Assembly (NCBI RefSeq): GCF_964213995.1 | Contig: NC_135811.1 | Span: forward strand, 18,600,001-18,664,000 | Direction: 5' to 3' | Length of the DNA stretch: 64,000 bases | Source: Mustelus asterias | Taxonomy: Eukaryota | Made by a program: the position numbers and the translations under genes | Shown here: positions 44,798 to 60,699 of the stretch, piece after piece | How the letters are laid out: the number at the start of each line of letters is the position of its first letter | Numbering within the stretch: the stretch's first letter is position 1 | The notes under the pieces: generated by a model | Database searches by the model: none | What the model was told of the DNA's origin: nothing | The model's input: the letters and a program-made list of their open reading frames with translations, nothing else

Positions 44798-45410
44798 CTA
44801 ATTCCATCAGATGTTTTAGTATTTTCTTCATAACTCACTGGCATGCTCACCGTACCATTCAAATATAGTTATTAAACTGCTGCTGCTGCATGTTACTCCC
44901 ATAGGAAAAAGTGGAATGTCCTCATTTAAAGTTTCCTCTTTCGCACCAGTTTTACTATTTCATTAGCAACTTGTAGCTGAGGGGCCTGAGTTGTTGCTGA
45001 TCTTTTTTGCATCATTGTTTCAAAGGGCTGCGAATGTGCAAGCCACTCTTGTCTGCTATACCTCCTGTTTGTGTGTGAACTAGTTAATTTGCTGAACCTG
45101 GCAGGTAATTAGTTATGTGGAGATGCCGGCGTTGGACTGGGGTAAGCACAGTAAGAAGTCTCACAACACCAGGTTAAAGTCCAAGAGGTTTATTTGGCAG
45201 CACACGCTTTCGGAATCTCGCTCATTCCTCAGGTGAGTGAGGAGTTGTGCCCACAAACAGGGCATATACAGACACAAACTCAATTTACAAAATAATGGTT
45301 GGAATGCGAGTCTTTACAGGTAATCAAGTCTTAAAGGTACAGACAATGTGAGTGGGGAGAGGGTTAAGCACAGGTTAAAGAGATGTGTATTGTCTCCAGC
45401 CAGGATAGTT

Positions 45411-45984: not shown

Positions 45985-46166
45985 GAGTTTTAACAACACC
46001 AGGTTAAAGTCCAACAGGTTTATTTGGTAGCAAATACCATAAGCTTTCGGAGCGCTGCTCCTTCGTCAGTTTCCACTCCATCTGACGAAGGAGCAGCGCT
46101 CCGAAAGCTTATGGTATTTGCTACCAAATAAACCTGTTGGACTTTAACCTGGTGTTGTTAAAACTC
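45985..46166. repeat. Perfect inverted repeat of a Penelope terminus (85-bp arms, 12-nt spacer)
   Basis: 45985-46069 is the exact reverse complement of 46082-46166. Confidence 0.95.
46078..46114 (+). ncRNA. Minimal type I hammerhead ribozyme motif (Penelope-associated)
   Basis: CCAT-CTGACGA-A-GGAGC-agc-GCTCC-GAA-AGCT-T-ATGG: stem I CCAU/AUGG, core, stem II, palindromic stem III. Confidence 0.7.
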
Positions 46167-52799: not shown

Positions 52800-53564
52800 T
52801 TAACGGACCCTCTTGCTAACGCAGTTTCTGGTCTTCAGTTTAGGGATAGTGGGCTGCAGCTTGGAGAGTGGGCAGTATTTGATGGTGTGCGCGTTGTCTC
52901 CGTTGGCACCGCACAGGGGGCATGTGTAGCGCCTGAGGATGGGGCACAGCACCCGGCCGTCGGGGCTCTTCAGGATGTGGGTGGTGTACAGGGTGACCGA
53001 CTCGTTGTTGTTCCGGCAGAAGACGCAGATCTGCAGCTCTGCCTTGCCCCTGCTGGCTCGCTGCTGAACAGGAGGAGGGGGTGGCGGAGGGTGGTGCTGT
53101 TGCTGGTGGTGATAGTGGGCCAGTTGCAGGTGGCTCTTGTTGTCCATCATGATCACATCCAGCCGGTTCCAGTCGCCGGGCTCCCTCTCTCTGTCGGCCC
53201 GCTGCTGCTGCTGCTGCAGCTCGCCGCCGCCGCCCCTCGCCGCCGAGAAGGGGCTGAAGTCGGCGAAGCCCCCCTCCAGCCCGGTGGCCAGCAGCGCGTC
53301 GTGGTGCGAGCACAGCCCCAGCTGCAGCGAGCGGGCCAGGCAAGCCGGAGCGCCGGGCTGCAGCTTCAGCTGGCTGCCCGGGGCCAGTCCGCCCTTGCCC
53401 CCCTCGCCCCCAGCCTTGCCCACCAGCGTGCTCAAGCCCAGGTAGTCATTCCACGAGTTGAAGGTGTTCTCGGAAGTTCCGGCGTATCTCTGGCGCAGGT
53501 AATCCACCGAGCTGCTGTGCTTCTCCAAGCGAAGCTGGCTGTCTATAGAGCCGAAAGTTTCCAT
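52800..53564 (-). CDS. NANOS1: Nanos C2HC-type zinc finger 1, intronless ORF, 254 aa
   Basis: NOT1-interacting motif FNSWNDYLGL; two CCHC fingers (CVFCRNN...H...CPILRRYTCPLCGANGDNAHTIKYCP); tail-to-tail with EIF3A as in human. Confidence 0.96.
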   Translation of the reverse strand: METFGSIDSQLRLEKHSSSVDYLRQRYAGTSENTFNSWNDYLGLSTLVGKAGGEGGKGGLAPGSQLKLQPGAPACLARSLQLGLCSHHDALLATGLEGGFADFSPFSAARGGGGELQQQQQRADREREPGDWNRLDVIMMDNKSHLQLAHYHHQQQHHPPPPPPPVQQRASRGKAELQICVFCRNNNESVTLYTTHILKSPDGRVLCPILRRYTCPLCGANGDNAHTIKYCPLSKLQPTIPKLKTRNCVSKRVR

Positions 53565-53689
53565 TTCTCATGGATCAGCTTTCACCTCCTCCCCCCCTCT
53601 CCCCTGTAAAGCTGCCCCCTCCCCTACTAATTTTGTTGCTTAAAAAGTGTAAATCTTCCCAGTTCTCCTTGCACATCGATACAACAGGA

Positions 53690-54299: not shown

Positions 54300-54672
54300 A
54301 TTTACTTATTATTGTCACAATTAGGCTTACATTAACATTGCAGAAACGTTAGATTGTAAACAAATTTAGACAGAGTGTACAGTCAGTCACAATAAAACGT
54401 GTATTCCCAAACTCAGTATAGTCTCAATAAATGTTCACGAAGTTACTGTGAATACCCCCTAGTCGCCACACTCTGGCGCCTGTTCGGGTACACTGAGGGA
54501 GAATTTAGCATGGCCAATGCACCTAACCAGCATGTCTTTCGGACTGTGGGAGGAAACCGGGACACCTGGAGGAAACCCATGCAGGCACAGGGAGAACTTG
54601 CAGATTCGCACAGACAGTGACCCAACCTGGGTCCCTGAAGCTGTGAGGCAGCAATGCTAACCACTGTGCCGC
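54300..54672 (-). mobile_element. V-SINE short-tail variant carrying a foreign ~98-bp insert
   Basis: Aligns to 50120-50405 except for 54341-54438. Confidence 0.85.
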
Positions 54673-54769: not shown

Positions 54770-57070
54770 TACAGTGCTGAGCTCCACACTATAGGAAGGA
54801 TGTGAATGCATTGATGAGAGACAGTGCAGAAGAGGTTTACAAGAATATTTCCAGGGATGAGAAACTTCAGTGATGAGGATAGATTGGAGAGGTTGGGACT
54901 GTTCTCCTTGGAGAGAAGAAGGCTAAGAGGAGATTTGTAGAGATGTCCAAAATTATGAGGGGGTTGGACAGAGTAAATAAGGAGAAACCGTTCCCCTTTG
55001 TAAAAGGATCGAGAACAACAGGGCACAGATTTAAGGTGTTTTGCAAAAGAAGCAAATGTGATTTAAAAAATAACTTTTTCACACGGTGAGTGGTTCAGGT
55101 CTGAAATGCGCTGCCTGTAAGTGTGGTAGAGGCAGGTTCAATTAAGGAATTCAAGGGGGAATTAGATAATTATTTGAATAGAAACAATGTGCAGGGGTAC
55201 AGGGAGAAGGCAGGGAATGGTGCTAAGTCTTGATGCTCATTTGAGCATCATGACTTGAGAGGTTGGATAGGCTTCGGTTGTTTTCTCTGGAGTAGAGAAG
55301 ACTGAGAGGTGACCAGATCGAGGTGTTCAAGATTATGAGCGGCATGGACAGGGTGGATAGGGAGCAGCTTTTCTCCTTTGATCAAGCAGATGCAGCATGG
55401 ATTCATGAAGGGAAAGTCGTGTTTGACGAATTTACTGGATTTTTATGAAGATGTAACGAGTGCAGTTGACAGAGGGGAACCGGTGGATGTGGTGTTTTTG
55501 GATTTCCAGAACGCGTTCAATAAGGTGCCTCACAAAAGGTTGCTGCAGAAGATTTGGGTACACGGAGTTGGGGGTAAAGTGTTAGCGTGGATTGAGGATT
55601 GGCTATCTAACAGGAAGCAGAGAGTAGGAATAAATGGGTGCTTTTCTGGTTGGCAGTTGGTGACTAGTGGCGTGCCGCAGGGATCGGTGCTGGGGCCTCA
55701 ACTGTTTACCATATACATAGACGATCTGGAGGAGGGGACCGAGTGTAGGGTAACAAAGTTTGCGGATGATACAAAGATGAGTGGGAAAGCGAATTGCGTG
55801 GAGGATGCGGAAAGTCTGCAGAGAGATTTGGATAGGCTAAGTGAGTGGGCGAGGATCTGGCAGATGGAGTATAACGTTGACAAGTGTGAGGTTACCCACT
55901 TTGGAAGGAATAATAGTAAAATGGACTATTATTTAAATAGTGAAAAATTACTACATGCTACTGTGCAGAGGGACCTGCATGAATCGCAAAAACTCAGTTT
56001 GCAGGTGCAGCAGGTGATCAAGAAGGCAAATGGAATGTTGGCCTTTATCACGAAGGGGATGGAGTATAAAAGCAGGGAGGTCTTGCTGCAACTGTACAAG
56101 GTACTGGTGAGGCCGCAACTGGAGTACTGTGTGCAATTTTGGTCCCCTTATTTGCAGAAGGATGTATTGGCCTTGGAGGGAATACAGAGAAGGTTCACCA
56201 GGTTGATACTGGAGATGAGGGGGTTAGCTTATGAGGAGAGATTGAGTAGATTGGGCCTGTACTCGTTGGAGTTTAGAAGGCTATGGGGAGATCTTATAGA
56301 GACATATAAGATAATGAAGGGGCTCGACAGGGTAGAGGCAGAGAGATTCTTTCCACTTAGAAAGGAAACAAGAACGAGAGGACACAGCCTCAAAATAAGG
56401 GGGAGCCAGTTTAGGACAGAGTTGAGGAGGAACTTCTTCTCTCAGAGGGTAGTGAATCTCTGGAATTCTCTGCCCATTGAAGCAGTGGAGGCTACCTCGT
56501 AAAGTATGTTTAAGTCACAGGTAGATAGATTTCTGATCAATAAGGGAATTAAGGGTTATGGGGAGTGGGCGGGTAAGTGGAACTAAACCACTATCAGATC
56601 AGCCATGATCTTATTGAATGGCGGGGAAGGCTCGAGGGGCTAGATGGCCTACTCCTGCTCCTATTTCTTATGTTCTTATGTTCTTATATTCGTTGAAGGG
56701 TCAGTTACAAGGGAACAAAAGTTTAAAAGTGAGATGGGAGGTTTAGGGTGAATTTGAAGTAAATCATTTTTACTCAGAGGGTGGTGACGGTCTGGAATGC
56801 ACTGCCTGGGAGGGTGGTGGAGGCGGGATGCCTCACATCCTTTAAAAAGTACCTGGATGACTACTTGGCACACCATAACATTCAAGGCTGTGGGCCAAGT
56901 TCTGGCAAGTGGGATTAGGTGGGCAGATCAGGGCCTTTCATGCGTCAGTGCAGACTCGATGGGCTGAAGGGCCTCTTCTGCACTGTAGGATTCTGTGATT
57001 CATTTGGAGAGCCAATGCAGACATGATGGTCCAAATGGCTTCCTTCTGCGGCCGTAACAATTCTGTTATT
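54770..57070 (+). mobile_element. Three nested CR1 LINE fragments; the innermost (55378-56690) keeps a 374-aa RT ORF
   Basis: [36 protein letters not shown] and KFADD motifs; outer elements resume at about 56691 and 57001. Confidence 0.9.
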
Positions 57071-57839
57071 TTGAATAGCTGGATGGGCTGAGATCCACAG
57101 TATATTGGTCAGATCGGGTTAATTTATTGGTTATGGAGGGGGGAGGGGGAAAACATGACAAAAAAACACTCAATGAGGTTGAGAATTTCTGAGATATGAC
57201 AATTATTCTGAGAAATTATTAATGTTAGAAATTGTACAACCAGAATTGGTGAACAAACTGGGGTAGGCATGGTGCGATGAGAATAGCCCCCGGGGGAGAA
57301 GGACATGGCTGGGAAGTGGCCCGGCAATGTCCTCTGGCACTGCCCCTTGGCACAGGTTGTTACTGCCAGGCTGGCATCATACCCACGCCAACCTGGTAGT
57401 GCTAGCTTGGCAGTTCCAGCCAGTGCCGGGGGCGAGCACCAGTGGGAGCAGCATGGAGGAGGGGGAGGAGGATTCATTCAGATTTGGTTGTGAGCTGGGA
57501 GTAGAGGGAGGAGCTGGGGTGATGGCTGTTGTGGGGGAGGAGAGGGGGTGGGTGGGTACTGAATGGCATGTGGGTGCCGACTCCAGCAGTGGGGCCGTGG
57601 GGGGGAGGGAGGGTGCGGAGGTGCGGTGATTGGGGGGGAAGAGGGAGATTGGGTGGGAGAAGGTCTGGATGATCGGGGTGGTTGGGGGGGGGGGGGGGGG
57701 GGTGGTTGCTGGTGGGTGGTGGTAGACAAGGGCCGACTCCGATTGGGGCTGAGGACGGGAGCCACTGAGAATTCCATGGTGGGCTCAGGCGGGGGGGGGG
57801 GGGGGGGGGAGAGGTTTACTCAGGTTCTGATTGGGGCGC

Positions 57840-58166
57840 TGATGCGCGTTATCACACACGAGGCTTGATGCTCAGGAAATAAAGGCTTTTATTTGCTGTA
57901 ACAAAGCAGCTAACAATTATATACACGATCCCAGACTGAGGGGTCCCAGCCAGAGCAGGGACTTTTATACCTCTCCCAGGAGGTGGAGCCCGACTGGGAT
58001 GTACCACAACACTACAATACAAAGGTGTAACAACCCCACGCTAACCCTAACAGCAACAAGTAGCACAACCCATCCCTAACCCAACAGCAACATGTGTACA
58101 TACTTGTAGTACTGGCCAGACCCTGGCTCAGTACTATCCAGTGGGAACCAACGATGGCTCACCACA
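57840..58166 (-). repeat. 3' LTR
   Basis: Direct repeat of 60338-60654. Confidence 0.93.
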
Positions 58167-58228
58167 TTCACCCCTCCTTTGAGAACAAAGGCCGGCGGGG
58201 TACAAAAACAGAATAATTTGTCATCAGT

Positions 58229-59839
58229 CTATAAGTTCAGACGGTCAGGGGGACCGCACCATCGTTCTGACCTCCTCAATACCGGCGGTGACACCGGAGT
58301 AGGCACTTGCGGTGGCGTTCTCCCCAAGGCGATGTCCAGCTGTTCCTCCACAGACTCACAGGCCGGTTGACCCTGAGGTGACGGTAATCCATGGAGTCCC
58401 GACACGCCCTGAAGTGGCGACCATCCTCTGGACTCAGGCAAGCTGTACACGGGAGTAAAAGGGTTAAGCAATGGTCCCGATGCTGCCCGCGCCGTGTCCG
58501 GGGGAGAAACAAGAGTTAAGGGGTTTGTAAGAGGGGGTATGGGAGCGACAGGTGTTGCTACATCCCCTGCTGGCGCCAGGTCTCGGATTGAGACCGTGTC
58601 CTCTCGCCCGTCAGGGTATGCCACATAGGCATACTGAGGGTTGGCGTGGAGGAGATGGACCTGTTCGACCAACGGGTCGGACTTACGGGCCCTTACATGT
58701 CGTCGCAGGAGGACGGGTCCTGAGTACCTCAACCAAGACGGTAATGAGGTCCCTGAGGAAGACTTCTGAGGGAATGAAAACATCCTCTCATGGGGAGTAG
58801 CATTGGTTGCCGTACACAGGAGTGAGCGAATAGAATGGAGCGCATCAGGGAGCACCTCTTGCCAACGGGAGACTGGAAGGCTTTTTGACTTCAACGCCAG
58901 TAAGACAGCCTTCCAGACTGTAGCATTCTCATGTTCCACCTGTCCGTTACCCCTAGGGTTGTAGCTCGTGGTCCTACTAGAGGCAATCCCGTATGAGAGC
59001 AGGTATTGCCTCAAGTCATCGCTCATGAACGACGAGCCCCTGTCGCTGTGAATGTAGCCGGGGTACCCGAACAGGGTAAAAAGATCACGGAATGCCTTGA
59101 TAACCGTGGCAGCGGATGTATCAGAGCAGGGAACAACAAAAGGGAACCTAGAGTACTCGTCAATGATGTTGAGGAAGTACACATTCCGATCTGTTGAGGG
59201 AATGGGGCCCTTAAAATCGACACTCAGTCTCTCGAAGGGACGAGTGGCCTTGACTAAATGTGCCCGGTCAGGTCGGTAAAAGTGCGGTTTGCATTCCGCG
59301 CATACCCGACAGCTTCTTGTTATGGACCTGACGTCCTCCACCGAGTAGGGCAGATTGCGGGCTTTTATAAAGTGGTAGAGCCGAGTGACCCCAGGATGGC
59401 ATAGGTCATTATGGAGAGCCTGCAAACGGTCCTCCTGTATGCTGGCGCATGTTCCACGTGAGAGGGCATCCAAGGGCTCATTGAGTTTCCCTGGACGATA
59501 CATGATGTCATAGTTATAGGTGGAGAGTTCAATTCTCCACCGCAAGATCTTGTCATTCTTGATCTTGCCCCTCTGCGTGTTGTTAAACATGAACGCCACA
59601 GACCGCTGGTCCGTGATCAGGGTGAACCGTTTTCCTGCCAAGTAATGGCGCCAGTGCCTGACGGCCTCCACAATGGCCTGGGCCTCCTTTTCCACCGCTG
59701 AATGCCGAATTTCGGGGCCTTGGAGGGTGCGGGAAGAAAGTGTGACGGGCCTGCCCGCCTGGTTAAGTGTGGCGGCCAGGGCGAAATCAGATGCATCGCT
59801 CTCCACCTGAAAGGGGATGGACTCATCAACAGCGTGCAT
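58229..59839 (-). CDS. Gypsy pol remnant: RNase H + integrase (536 aa open frame)
   Basis: RNase H motifs ESDAS, EKEA, TDQ; zinc finger H..H..CRVC; DDE motifs SVDFKGP, HSDRGSSF, GQVE. Confidence 0.88.
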   Translation of the reverse strand: MHAVDESIPFQVESDASDFALAATLNQAGRPVTLSSRTLQGPEIRHSAVEKEAQAIVEAVRHWRHYLAGKRFTLITDQRSVAFMFNNTQRGKIKNDKILRWRIELSTYNYDIMYRPGKLNEPLDALSRGTCASIQEDRLQALHNDLCHPGVTRLYHFIKARNLPYSVEDVRSITRSCRVCAECKPHFYRPDRAHLVKATRPFERLSVDFKGPIPSTDRNVYFLNIIDEYSRFPFVVPCSDTSAATVIKAFRDLFTLFGYPGYIHSDRGSSFMSDDLRQYLLSYGIASSRTTSYNPRGNGQVEHENATVWKAVLLALKSKSLPVSRWQEVLPDALHSIRSLLCTATNATPHERMFSFPQKSSSGTSLPSWLRYSGPVLLRRHVRARKSDPLVEQVHLLHANPQYAYVAYPDGREDTVSIRDLAPAGDVATPVAPIPPLTNPLTLVSPPDTARAASGPLLNPFTPVYSLPESRGWSPLQGVSGLHGLPSPQGQPACESVEEQLDIALGRTPPQVPTPVSPPVLRRSERWCGPPDRLNL

Positions 59840-59842
59840 CGT

Positions 59843-60288
59843 AGTTTAAGTCGAATGTACGACGATCCGACTCCCGCCACAAACGCATCTCGGGCGAGGT
59901 CGTTCATACTCTGCTCAGCCGACACAGCTTTGCAGTTACAGCCCCTGGCTAGCTGTAGGAGCTCGTTCGCGTATTCCTCCATCGTTTTGCCAGACTGCCG
60001 CCGCCGAGTGGCTAAGAGGTAACGAGCGTGTATTTCGTTGGGTGGTTTAATATAACGCTTCTTCAGAAGCACGAGGGCCTTTGTGTAATCGGTGGTCGCA
60101 CGGATCGCGAGGTAGACAGTGTCGCTTACCCTCGCATGGAGGACCCGGAGTCTGTCATCATCTGTGGTGACCGCTGCGGAGGCTGCCAGGTAGTCTTCAA
60201 AACACTTCAGCCAGTGGTCGAAGGTGTTAGAGGCGCCCACCGCACGTGGATCTAGTGTAAGGCGTTCCGGCTTCAGTATCTGCTCCAT
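59843..60288 (-). pseudogene. Truncated Gypsy gag (N-terminal ~148 aa)
   Basis: MEQILKPERL...HWLKCFEDYL...ARYLLATRRRQSGKTMEEY...ARDAFVAG gag-like motifs; ends at the deletion junction. Confidence 0.75.
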
Positions 60289-60337
60289 ACTCTCTTTTTT
60301 TTTTCTTCGACGAGAGTTTATTTACAGCAAATAAAGT

Positions 60338-60654
60338 TGATGCGCGTTATCATACACGATGCTCAGGAAATAAAGGCTTTTATTTGCTGTAACAAAGCAG
60401 CTAACAATTATATACACGATCCCAGACTGAGGGGTCCCAGCCAGAGCAGGGACCTTTATACCTCTCCCAGGAGGTGGAGCCCGACTGGGATGTACCACAA
60501 CACTACAATACAAAGGTGTAACAACCCCACCCTAACCCCAACAGCAACAAGTAGCACAACCCATCCCTAACCCAACAGCAACATATGTACATACTTGTAC
60601 TGGCCAGACCCTGGCTCAGTACTATCCAGTGGGAACCAACGATGGTTCACCACA
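60338..60654 (-). repeat. 5' LTR
   Basis: Direct repeat of 57840-58166; TATAAAG, Inr-like TCAGT and AATAAA on the minus strand. Confidence 0.93.
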
Positions 60655-60699
60655 GGCGCCTTTAAAGAACTCTGTGCAGCTGGGTTTTGCCAGGTGTTT

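Follow-up and report, generated by a model that had tools for sequence, protein, structure and literature searches.

A clade of animal Ty3/Gypsy retrotransposons without a chromodomain carries, at the position where a primer should bind, a short sequence complementary to a segment of the element's own 5′ LTR, and this pairing is kept across families and across phyla. Judged from these compensatory changes and from the fixed register of the pairing, it is very probable that the elements prime reverse transcription from their own RNA in some form. A sequence-only reading of one copy had offered tRNA-independent self-priming as one of two explanations, and the clade-wide data support it well. That copy lies in the window, the 64,000-nucleotide stretch of the Mustelus asterias genome that we analysed. 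The copy itself is defective and ordinary; what gives the system its value is the helix shared across the clade, with its fixed A|RCC edge, together with the evidence for an internal primer.

The window copy, its family and its clade

The element lies on the minus strand. TG...CA LTRs, a target duplication, a polypurine tract and the order gag-PR-RT-RH-IN mark it as a Ty3/Gypsy LTR retrotransposon, and the best PDB match of the clade's RT is Ty3 RT (190 bits). Its features, in the direction of the element, are as follows.

60655–60659, minus: target site duplication, upstream copy, 5 bp
57840–60654, minus: internally deleted Gypsy LTR retrotransposon copy, 2815 bp, bounded by 5-bp duplications
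60338–60654, minus: 5′ LTR, 317 bp (327 bp in the family), TG...CA
60455–60460, minus: conserved TATA box (TATA plus initiator in 104 of 116 junctions)
60426–60430, minus: initiator-like TCAGT with its A at 60428, 32 nt from the TATA box; transcription start predicted from motifs
60408–60414, minus: TATATAA, conserved in the window family only
60379–60392, minus: LTR partner segment, probable 3′ portion of the self-primer; holds AATAAA (60384–60379); the family helix adds 60378
60375–60377, minus: RCC motif directly 3′ of the partner, kept as RC(C/G); by folding the predicted 5′ strand of a second stem, likely the cut-site junction
60368–60385, minus: 7-bp LTR hairpin over AATAAA, by folding strong in the window family only
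60322–60335, minus: PBS position, complementary to the LTR partner; the family helix adds 60336
59847–60288, minus: gag 5′ fragment, ATG at 60288–60286
59841–59847, minus: deletion junction with a 7-nt overlap, ~1.9 kb gone
58229–59845, minus: RNase H and integrase frame, no chromodomain
58167–58180, minus: polypurine tract, AA last before the 3′ LTR
57840–58166, minus: 3′ LTR, 327 bp
57835–57839, minus: target site duplication, downstream copy, 5 bp

The two LTRs of the window copy differ by 6 mismatches and 10 gap columns. The ~1.9 kb that it has lost held the Gag knuckles, the protease and the RT, a point absent from the sequence-only reading; full-length members of the family measure ~4.74 kb and have a single gag-pol ORF. 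Our search of the window genome gave 3706 candidates, of which 40 were scored, and both LTRs were present in 18 of the 20 copies taken, most of these near 4.74 kb.

In the window copy, the 5′ LTR ends in CATCA and is followed by AC and then by 14 nt that are the exact reverse complement of LTR positions 60392–60379. The perfect pairing over the AATAAA and the absence of a TGG start had both been noticed from the letters alone, and both stand, though the window copy alone has the C at 60336: the sequence CA-AT-TTT is shared by 28 of 29 window-family junctions (30 loci, one unmatched), which gives a family helix of 15 bp that starts 1 nt past the LTR. When the LTR was shuffled 3000 times with its dinucleotides kept, no complement to a stretch that begins 0–5 nt past the LTR exceeded 10 nt, compared to the 14 observed, and the 141-nt region as a whole folded no better than its shuffles (z −0.54). 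The signal is the position and length of one helix, not overall folding. The 7-bp hairpin that had been described as competing with this helix is present in the window copy, but it does not extend to the clade as a general LTR feature, being largely family-specific.

Three other features of the window can be mentioned here. An intronless nanos gene (zf-nanos; 52800–53567, minus strand) shares the strand of the element and lies ~4.3 kb downstream of its 3′ LTR, and a 74-bp piece of the nanos 3′ region recurs upstream at 54372–54445. Positions 45985–46166 hold a perfect 85-bp inverted repeat with a 12-nt spacer, and related short repeats occur at 45142, 48023 and 62947. A reverse transcriptase fragment, presumably CR1-like, occupies 55339–56502 on the plus strand, with 387 codons open.

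The polyprotein of the clade carries two CCHC knuckles and a YLDN motif in the RT, and it lacks a chromodomain. Neither Chromo nor SH3_Tf2-1 gave a match in any of the 24 clade proteins scanned or in the RNase H-integrase frame of the window copy, where the sequence-only reading had likewise seen none; the same scan found Chromo in 2 of 16 other Gypsy integrases. YLDN, with Asn in place of the last Asp, occurs in 79 of 120 homologues (P0001–P0120) and in an abundant family (L045:2400–2450), and Y.DN forms together account for 96 of the 120. The equivalent Asp-to-Asn change blocks transposition of Ty1. A protein search scored 7986 candidates, 1562 of them relatives at E 1e-50 or better. Among the named relatives in the best 120 of these 1562, those from sharks and rays were 74–83% identical and those from cnidarians, a sea cucumber, a tunicate and nematodes 59–64% identical. 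Three gag searches of the window genome each gave ~15,000 candidates, and viral contigs yielded no relatives.

Conservation of the pairing within and beyond the shark genome

We sampled 120 junctions in the shark genome and scored 116 of them, the other four having no anchor; they fall into nine families, plus one copy whose LTR was replaced. All 12 pairs considered were formed in 89 junctions and at least 11 of 12 in 108. At the variable helix positions 8–13, each PBS formed a mean of 5.68 of 6 pairs with its own LTR, compared to 2.55 across families. The first three PBS bases were TTT in 111 of the 116. The start 1 nt after CA (115 A, 1 C) holds in all 116 by construction of the anchor.

A further sample was not picked for pairing: it came from a search pattern in which two LTR and two PBS positions were left free, and which had 1864 matches. 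The free positions were complementary in 28 of the first 30 loci as scored by a script, and in 90 of the 100 matches listed (of 1864) as scored by eye; eight dinucleotides were represented there, five of them inside one family group. In several of the ten mismatches, an LTR typical of one subfamily is joined to a PBS typical of another, which suggests recombinants. Two loci, L473 and G000:C1:63761170, have identical junctions with a common double mismatch at helix positions 8–9, suggesting a recombinant parent. In two other Gypsy groups of the same genome, which served as controls, TGG followed the LTR in 16 of 20 loci and no locus paired more than 7 bases with its own LTR.

We also looked for signs that primer sequence is copied into the PBS. 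At helix position 3, 40 variant copies comprised 13 that were LTR-only, 26 that were PBS-only and one double, the last being the copy that had prompted the test; this gives no support for such copying. Four PBS-only variants within one family looked like an inherited mismatch, a reading that we rejected: the family has 614 matching junctions, so the four fit independent decay.

Beyond the shark, we took 80 metagenome loci, of which 35 without gag and 6 too near a contig end were left out. The RT-RH of these distant relatives was 47–64% identical. Among the 39 loci scored, 29 had 11–19 perfect pairs (about a dozen of them near-copies from one assembly), and in 26 of these 29 the helix began 1 nt after CA. 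The ten misses, with fewer than 11 bp, comprised five damaged copies of helix-bearing families, three loci without a usable LTR junction and two loci of a single element (L107/L109). That element (L107:150–210, L109:3630–3694) has a 13-bp helix ~8 nt off the LTR end, with an unpaired insert. Another locus, L115, has neither the CA nor the RCC.

To compare the helix position by position, we used 32 representatives, 12 from the window genome and 20 from the metagenomes, the latter chosen where a helix had already been found. Helix positions 1–12 were paired in 30–32 of the 32, and positions 8, 9, 12 and 13 each showed all four pair types. When foreign PBS sequences were placed at their best register, at least 11 pairs formed in 17 of 380 trials. 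The helix almost always runs from one base past the LTR CA to an A|RC(C/G) edge in the LTR: the last base of the partner was A in 32 of 32 representatives, and RC(C/G) directly followed the helix in 19 of 20 invertebrate ones. Helix position 10 (60387 and 60327 in the window copy) is a G(LTR)-C(PBS) pair in 29 of the 32 while its neighbours vary, which fits recognition in a fixed register.

Relatives carrying a TGG tRNA site, which the sequence-only reading had said would speak against its proposal, were looked for; TGG stood at none of the clade junctions inspected in the shark genome and the metagenomes. The compensatory change that it had proposed to look for was found, with at least 11 pairs kept in the 108 shark and 29 metagenome loci given above. 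The clade thus has at least 10 bases after the LTR that are complementary to its own LTR and change with it, which is the sequence criterion for self-primed LTR elements.

Transcription start, RNA folding and the nature of the primer

A TATA box and, 30–34 nt downstream of it, an initiator-like element are present in 104 of 116 shark junctions, ~35–60 nt upstream of the partner's first base; from the initiator to the partner's 3′ end the distance is 50–55 nt in eight families and 74 nt in one. In the window copy, these are a second TATA box (60460–60455) and TCAGT (60430–60426), which the sequence-only reading did not include. It had instead taken the TATATAA at 60408–60414 as a promoter that would put the start near the pairing segment. 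We rejected this candidate: TATATAA occurs near the partner in 25 of 27 window-family copies, but all 62 copies from eight other families lack it, which makes a start at the partner improbable. Using the rule for TATA-to-start spacing, and from consensus motifs in shark families of common ancestry, we place the likely transcription start ~50 nt upstream of the helix 3′ end, which would make the primer internal, unlike that of Tf1. The invertebrate LTRs had no consistent TATA box. Four contig sets compared with the LTR contained no transcript start, end or poly(A) joint, and so weigh neither way. We also considered a fixed primer length, and dropped it: the 50–55 nt spacing varies no less than the loop does (48–58 nt) and is no evidence for it. 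In L081, L082, L092, L094, L096 and L107, a pyrimidine run ending in CAG, resembling a splice or trans-splice acceptor, lies ~15–50 nt upstream of the partner.

Folding predicted the primer helix with a probability above 0.5 in 109 of 116 shark folds and of 0.86–0.98 for 15 of the 16 invertebrate ones. RCC was also predicted to open a second stem, for which the U5 end supplies the other strand in most shark families; most invertebrate folds form a local hairpin there instead. The 5′ edge of the helix is less sharp in these predictions; it frays and often continues past bulges. The LTR stretch just upstream of the partner (GCTCC/GTTCC type; 60395–60403 in the window copy) can pair with the gag start (60280–60288) in all nine shark families (L131–L220), yet this is the best LTR site in only 26 of 89 copies, and in invertebrates the pairing is unclear. 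It resembles the retroviral U5-AUG helix and, with that reservation, speaks for an internal position of the primer. The gag ATG lies 16–50 nt from the PBS start.

The second explanation offered by the sequence-only reading, a structure that hides the 5′ poly(A) signal, does not hold as a general purpose of the helix. AATAAA or ATTAAA lies inside the helix in 22 of 32 representatives and other hexamers are found in ten, one of which was picked for its variant; since these ten lack the signal in the helix, hiding it is not the core role. In one element (L080) the A-run contains a compensated G-C pair, and another (L054) has its AATAAA outside the helix. In the LTR alone, the hexamer was predicted to be paired with a probability of 0.94 in the window family and 0.07–0.79 in eight other families; with the PBS present, pairing rose to 0.98–1.00 in the shark families, values mostly above those for the LTR alone. 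Where the helix contains AATAAA, it likely brings the side benefit of masking the 5′ poly(A) signal.

The right end of an LTR is set by the position of the primer 3′ end, so whatever binds one base after the CA is the primer. Because, across phyla, changes in this site accompany those in the LTR of the same element, no single host RNA could fill this role. The reading we favour, with moderate confidence, is that the element primes with an 11–19-base segment from its own 5′ LTR, which is cut at or beside A|RCC and would be internal to an RNA that starts ~50 bases upstream of the cut. The PBS position would pair with this segment, and the second stem that folding predicts from RCC would stack on the primer helix. 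The element's RNase H would then cut the RNA at, or one base inside, the A|RCC edge, by analogy with Tf1, and so free a 3′-OH; the AA between the polypurine tract and the LTR suggests two-base ends and so the inner of these cut positions. Minus-strand synthesis would run through U5 and the short stretch of R that lies below the cut, and its product would then jump to the 3′ LTR. One difficulty of a long primer is that the stop of plus-strand copying at the helix 5′ edge is not accounted for.

A 5′-terminal primer of the Tf1 type, with an RNA that starts at the partner's first base from a promoter without a visible motif, is unlikely in our judgement. It is the way of Tf1 in the passages of PMC7175516, it would give a simple reason for the pairing to end at 11–19 bases, and in the window family TATATAA does lie 22 nt upstream of the partner. 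However, the eight other families lack this motif in 62 of 62 copies and, like the window family, have TATA and initiator elsewhere (104 of 116), and the 5′ edge of the helix, frayed and often continued past bulges, also speaks against it. The primer could also be a 3′ end, supplied by a short LTR transcript that ended at the 5′ poly(A) site or by the 3′ copy of R, trimmed to the A-run and annealed to the PBS. The partner lies within R and hence exists in two copies per RNA, and its constant last A (32 of 32) and frequent AATAAA or ATTAAA (22 of 32) would suit such an origin; yet the ten representatives without the hexamer, the compensated G-C pair in the A-run of L080, the loss on trimming of a conserved RCC stem downstream of the primer end, and a local 5′ helix that is predicted to form readily make it quite unlikely.

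The helix might instead be purely regulatory, covering the 5′ poly(A) signal or the gag start and so affecting how the RNA is processed or translated, with something else as primer. The near-complete pairing of the hexamer once the PBS is present, and the short distance to the gag ATG, are consistent with such a role, but it would leave unexplained both the one-base register at the LTR end and the absence of another primer site. It also fits poorly with the ten representatives without the hexamer in the helix, with the AATAAA outside the helix in L054, and with the window family, in which the hexamer is predicted to be paired in both LTRs (0.94); we regard it as distinctly improbable. To a host RNA, such as a tRNA half or an snRNA, that binds the site while the LTR match is secondary, we give hardly any weight. 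The site varies freely between families in step with the LTR, and the primer 3′ ends match at most 5 bases of 26 tRNA gene sequences, a weak check as these represent only 7 types.

Returning to the internal self-primer, it is tempting to speculate that this lineage, large and old, evolved self-priming independently and by a design that departs from Tf1, using a capped RNA of ~50 bases, cut from the interior of R at an A|RCC three-way junction, as its substitute for a tRNA, with the helix also masking the 5′ poly(A) signal in many families. We hold this fuller version only tentatively and think it less probable than its opposite.

Relationship to known self-priming elements

We built quick trees of 79 rows, 16 of the 95 loci offered being left out for a short or missing RT match; the rows include 44 further Gypsy RTs from contaminated bacterial bins and none from Tf1, sushi or Cigr-1. 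The clade forms one side of a long branch (30 of 79 rows, SH-aLRT 100), apart from the chromodomain-bearing rows. AU tests nevertheless do not reject grouping it with those rows (p 0.69, with a likelihood above that of the free tree, and p 0.47), so that an origin independent of chromoviruses would be no more than a possibility. Sixty eukaryotic Gypsy RT stretches (L391–L450) came from bacterial and archaeal species genomes, probably as host contamination of the bins, and one locus, L433, has a DNA methylase match between RH and integrase. No chromovirus was recognised in the shark genome, where the SH3_Tf2-1 matches were weak and belonged to other element types. For the L271 family we rejected a Gmr1-like assignment, because its RT precedes IN.

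The RT-RH of the clade is ~29–30% identical to that of two tRNA-primed Gypsy groups of the shark genome. Mag-like elements, a label given from PBS and RT motifs, are the nearest named group in the midpoint drawing of the tree. Mag-like elements have two Gag knuckles and 5-bp target duplications; those in the shark genome have a TGG site, unlike the clade, to which their RT-RH is ~29% identical. Cigr-1 is a candidate name for the clade. The Cigr-1 clade would resemble it in short LTRs, one ORF of ~1200 codons and a Mag-like Gag, and our clade has a tunicate member (P0113). A passage of PMC6238403 places the Cigr-1 clade in Ciona and also in molluscs.

A full-text literature search, whose coverage did not extend to Repbase and key papers, did not turn up any account of an animal Gypsy clade that lacks the chromodomain and primes itself. 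Repbase appears to have entries on self-priming Gypsy families, and prior notice there is quite possible. In the parts of the literature considered here, self-priming is demonstrated for fission-yeast Tf1 only and is otherwise linked to chromoviruses of the Tf1/sushi group and to two plant lineages. Priming without a tRNA would be common in animals if it holds for our clade, which lacks a chromodomain and has ~15,000 gag candidates in one genome, with hosts that range from cnidarians to rays. Elements of this kind may escape control through tRNA supply or tRNA fragments, and they would be missed by annotation based on the PBS. If the primer is internal, RNase H must position its cut by RNA shape rather than beside the cap.

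The two plant lineages are the chromovirus Tcn1 and the Ty1/copia element TAR, for which passages of PMC6317226 predict self-priming from at least 10 bases, 0–5 nt after the LTR, that are complementary to the 5′ LTR. The same sequence criterion applies to our clade, which differs in lineage and hosts. TAR, as described there, shows that self-priming also arose outside Tf1/sushi; the passages of PMC6317226 name no animal non-chromoviral Gypsy element with self-priming.

The closest comparison is with Tf1 and Tf2 of Schizosaccharomyces pombe, Tj1, Tosmo1–3 and the other Tf1/sushi chromoviruses. Like the clade, they have no tRNA site, a PBS complementary to their own 5′ LTR, and the Ty3/Gypsy domain order. 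In Tf1, RNase H cuts between RNA bases 11 and 12 (a passage of PMC7175516), and the RNA is described as a three-duplex 'pretzel' in part of bioRxiv 10.1101/2022.12.06.519325. Extra duplexes beside the primer helix may be a further likeness, predicted ones in our case: a second stem from RCC appears in our folds, whereas a third duplex of the Tf1 type was not seen. By the sequence criterion, then, the clade appears Tf1/sushi-like, yet it lacks the chromodomain by which members of that group are recognised (24 of 24 proteins), and it has two CCHC knuckles and YLDN. Its partner is predicted to lie inside R rather than in the RNA's initial 11 bases, and its helix has a conserved A|RCC edge and a 1-nt spacer. 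Its hosts, as given by the protein names, are sharks, rays, cnidarians, echinoderms, tunicates and nematodes.
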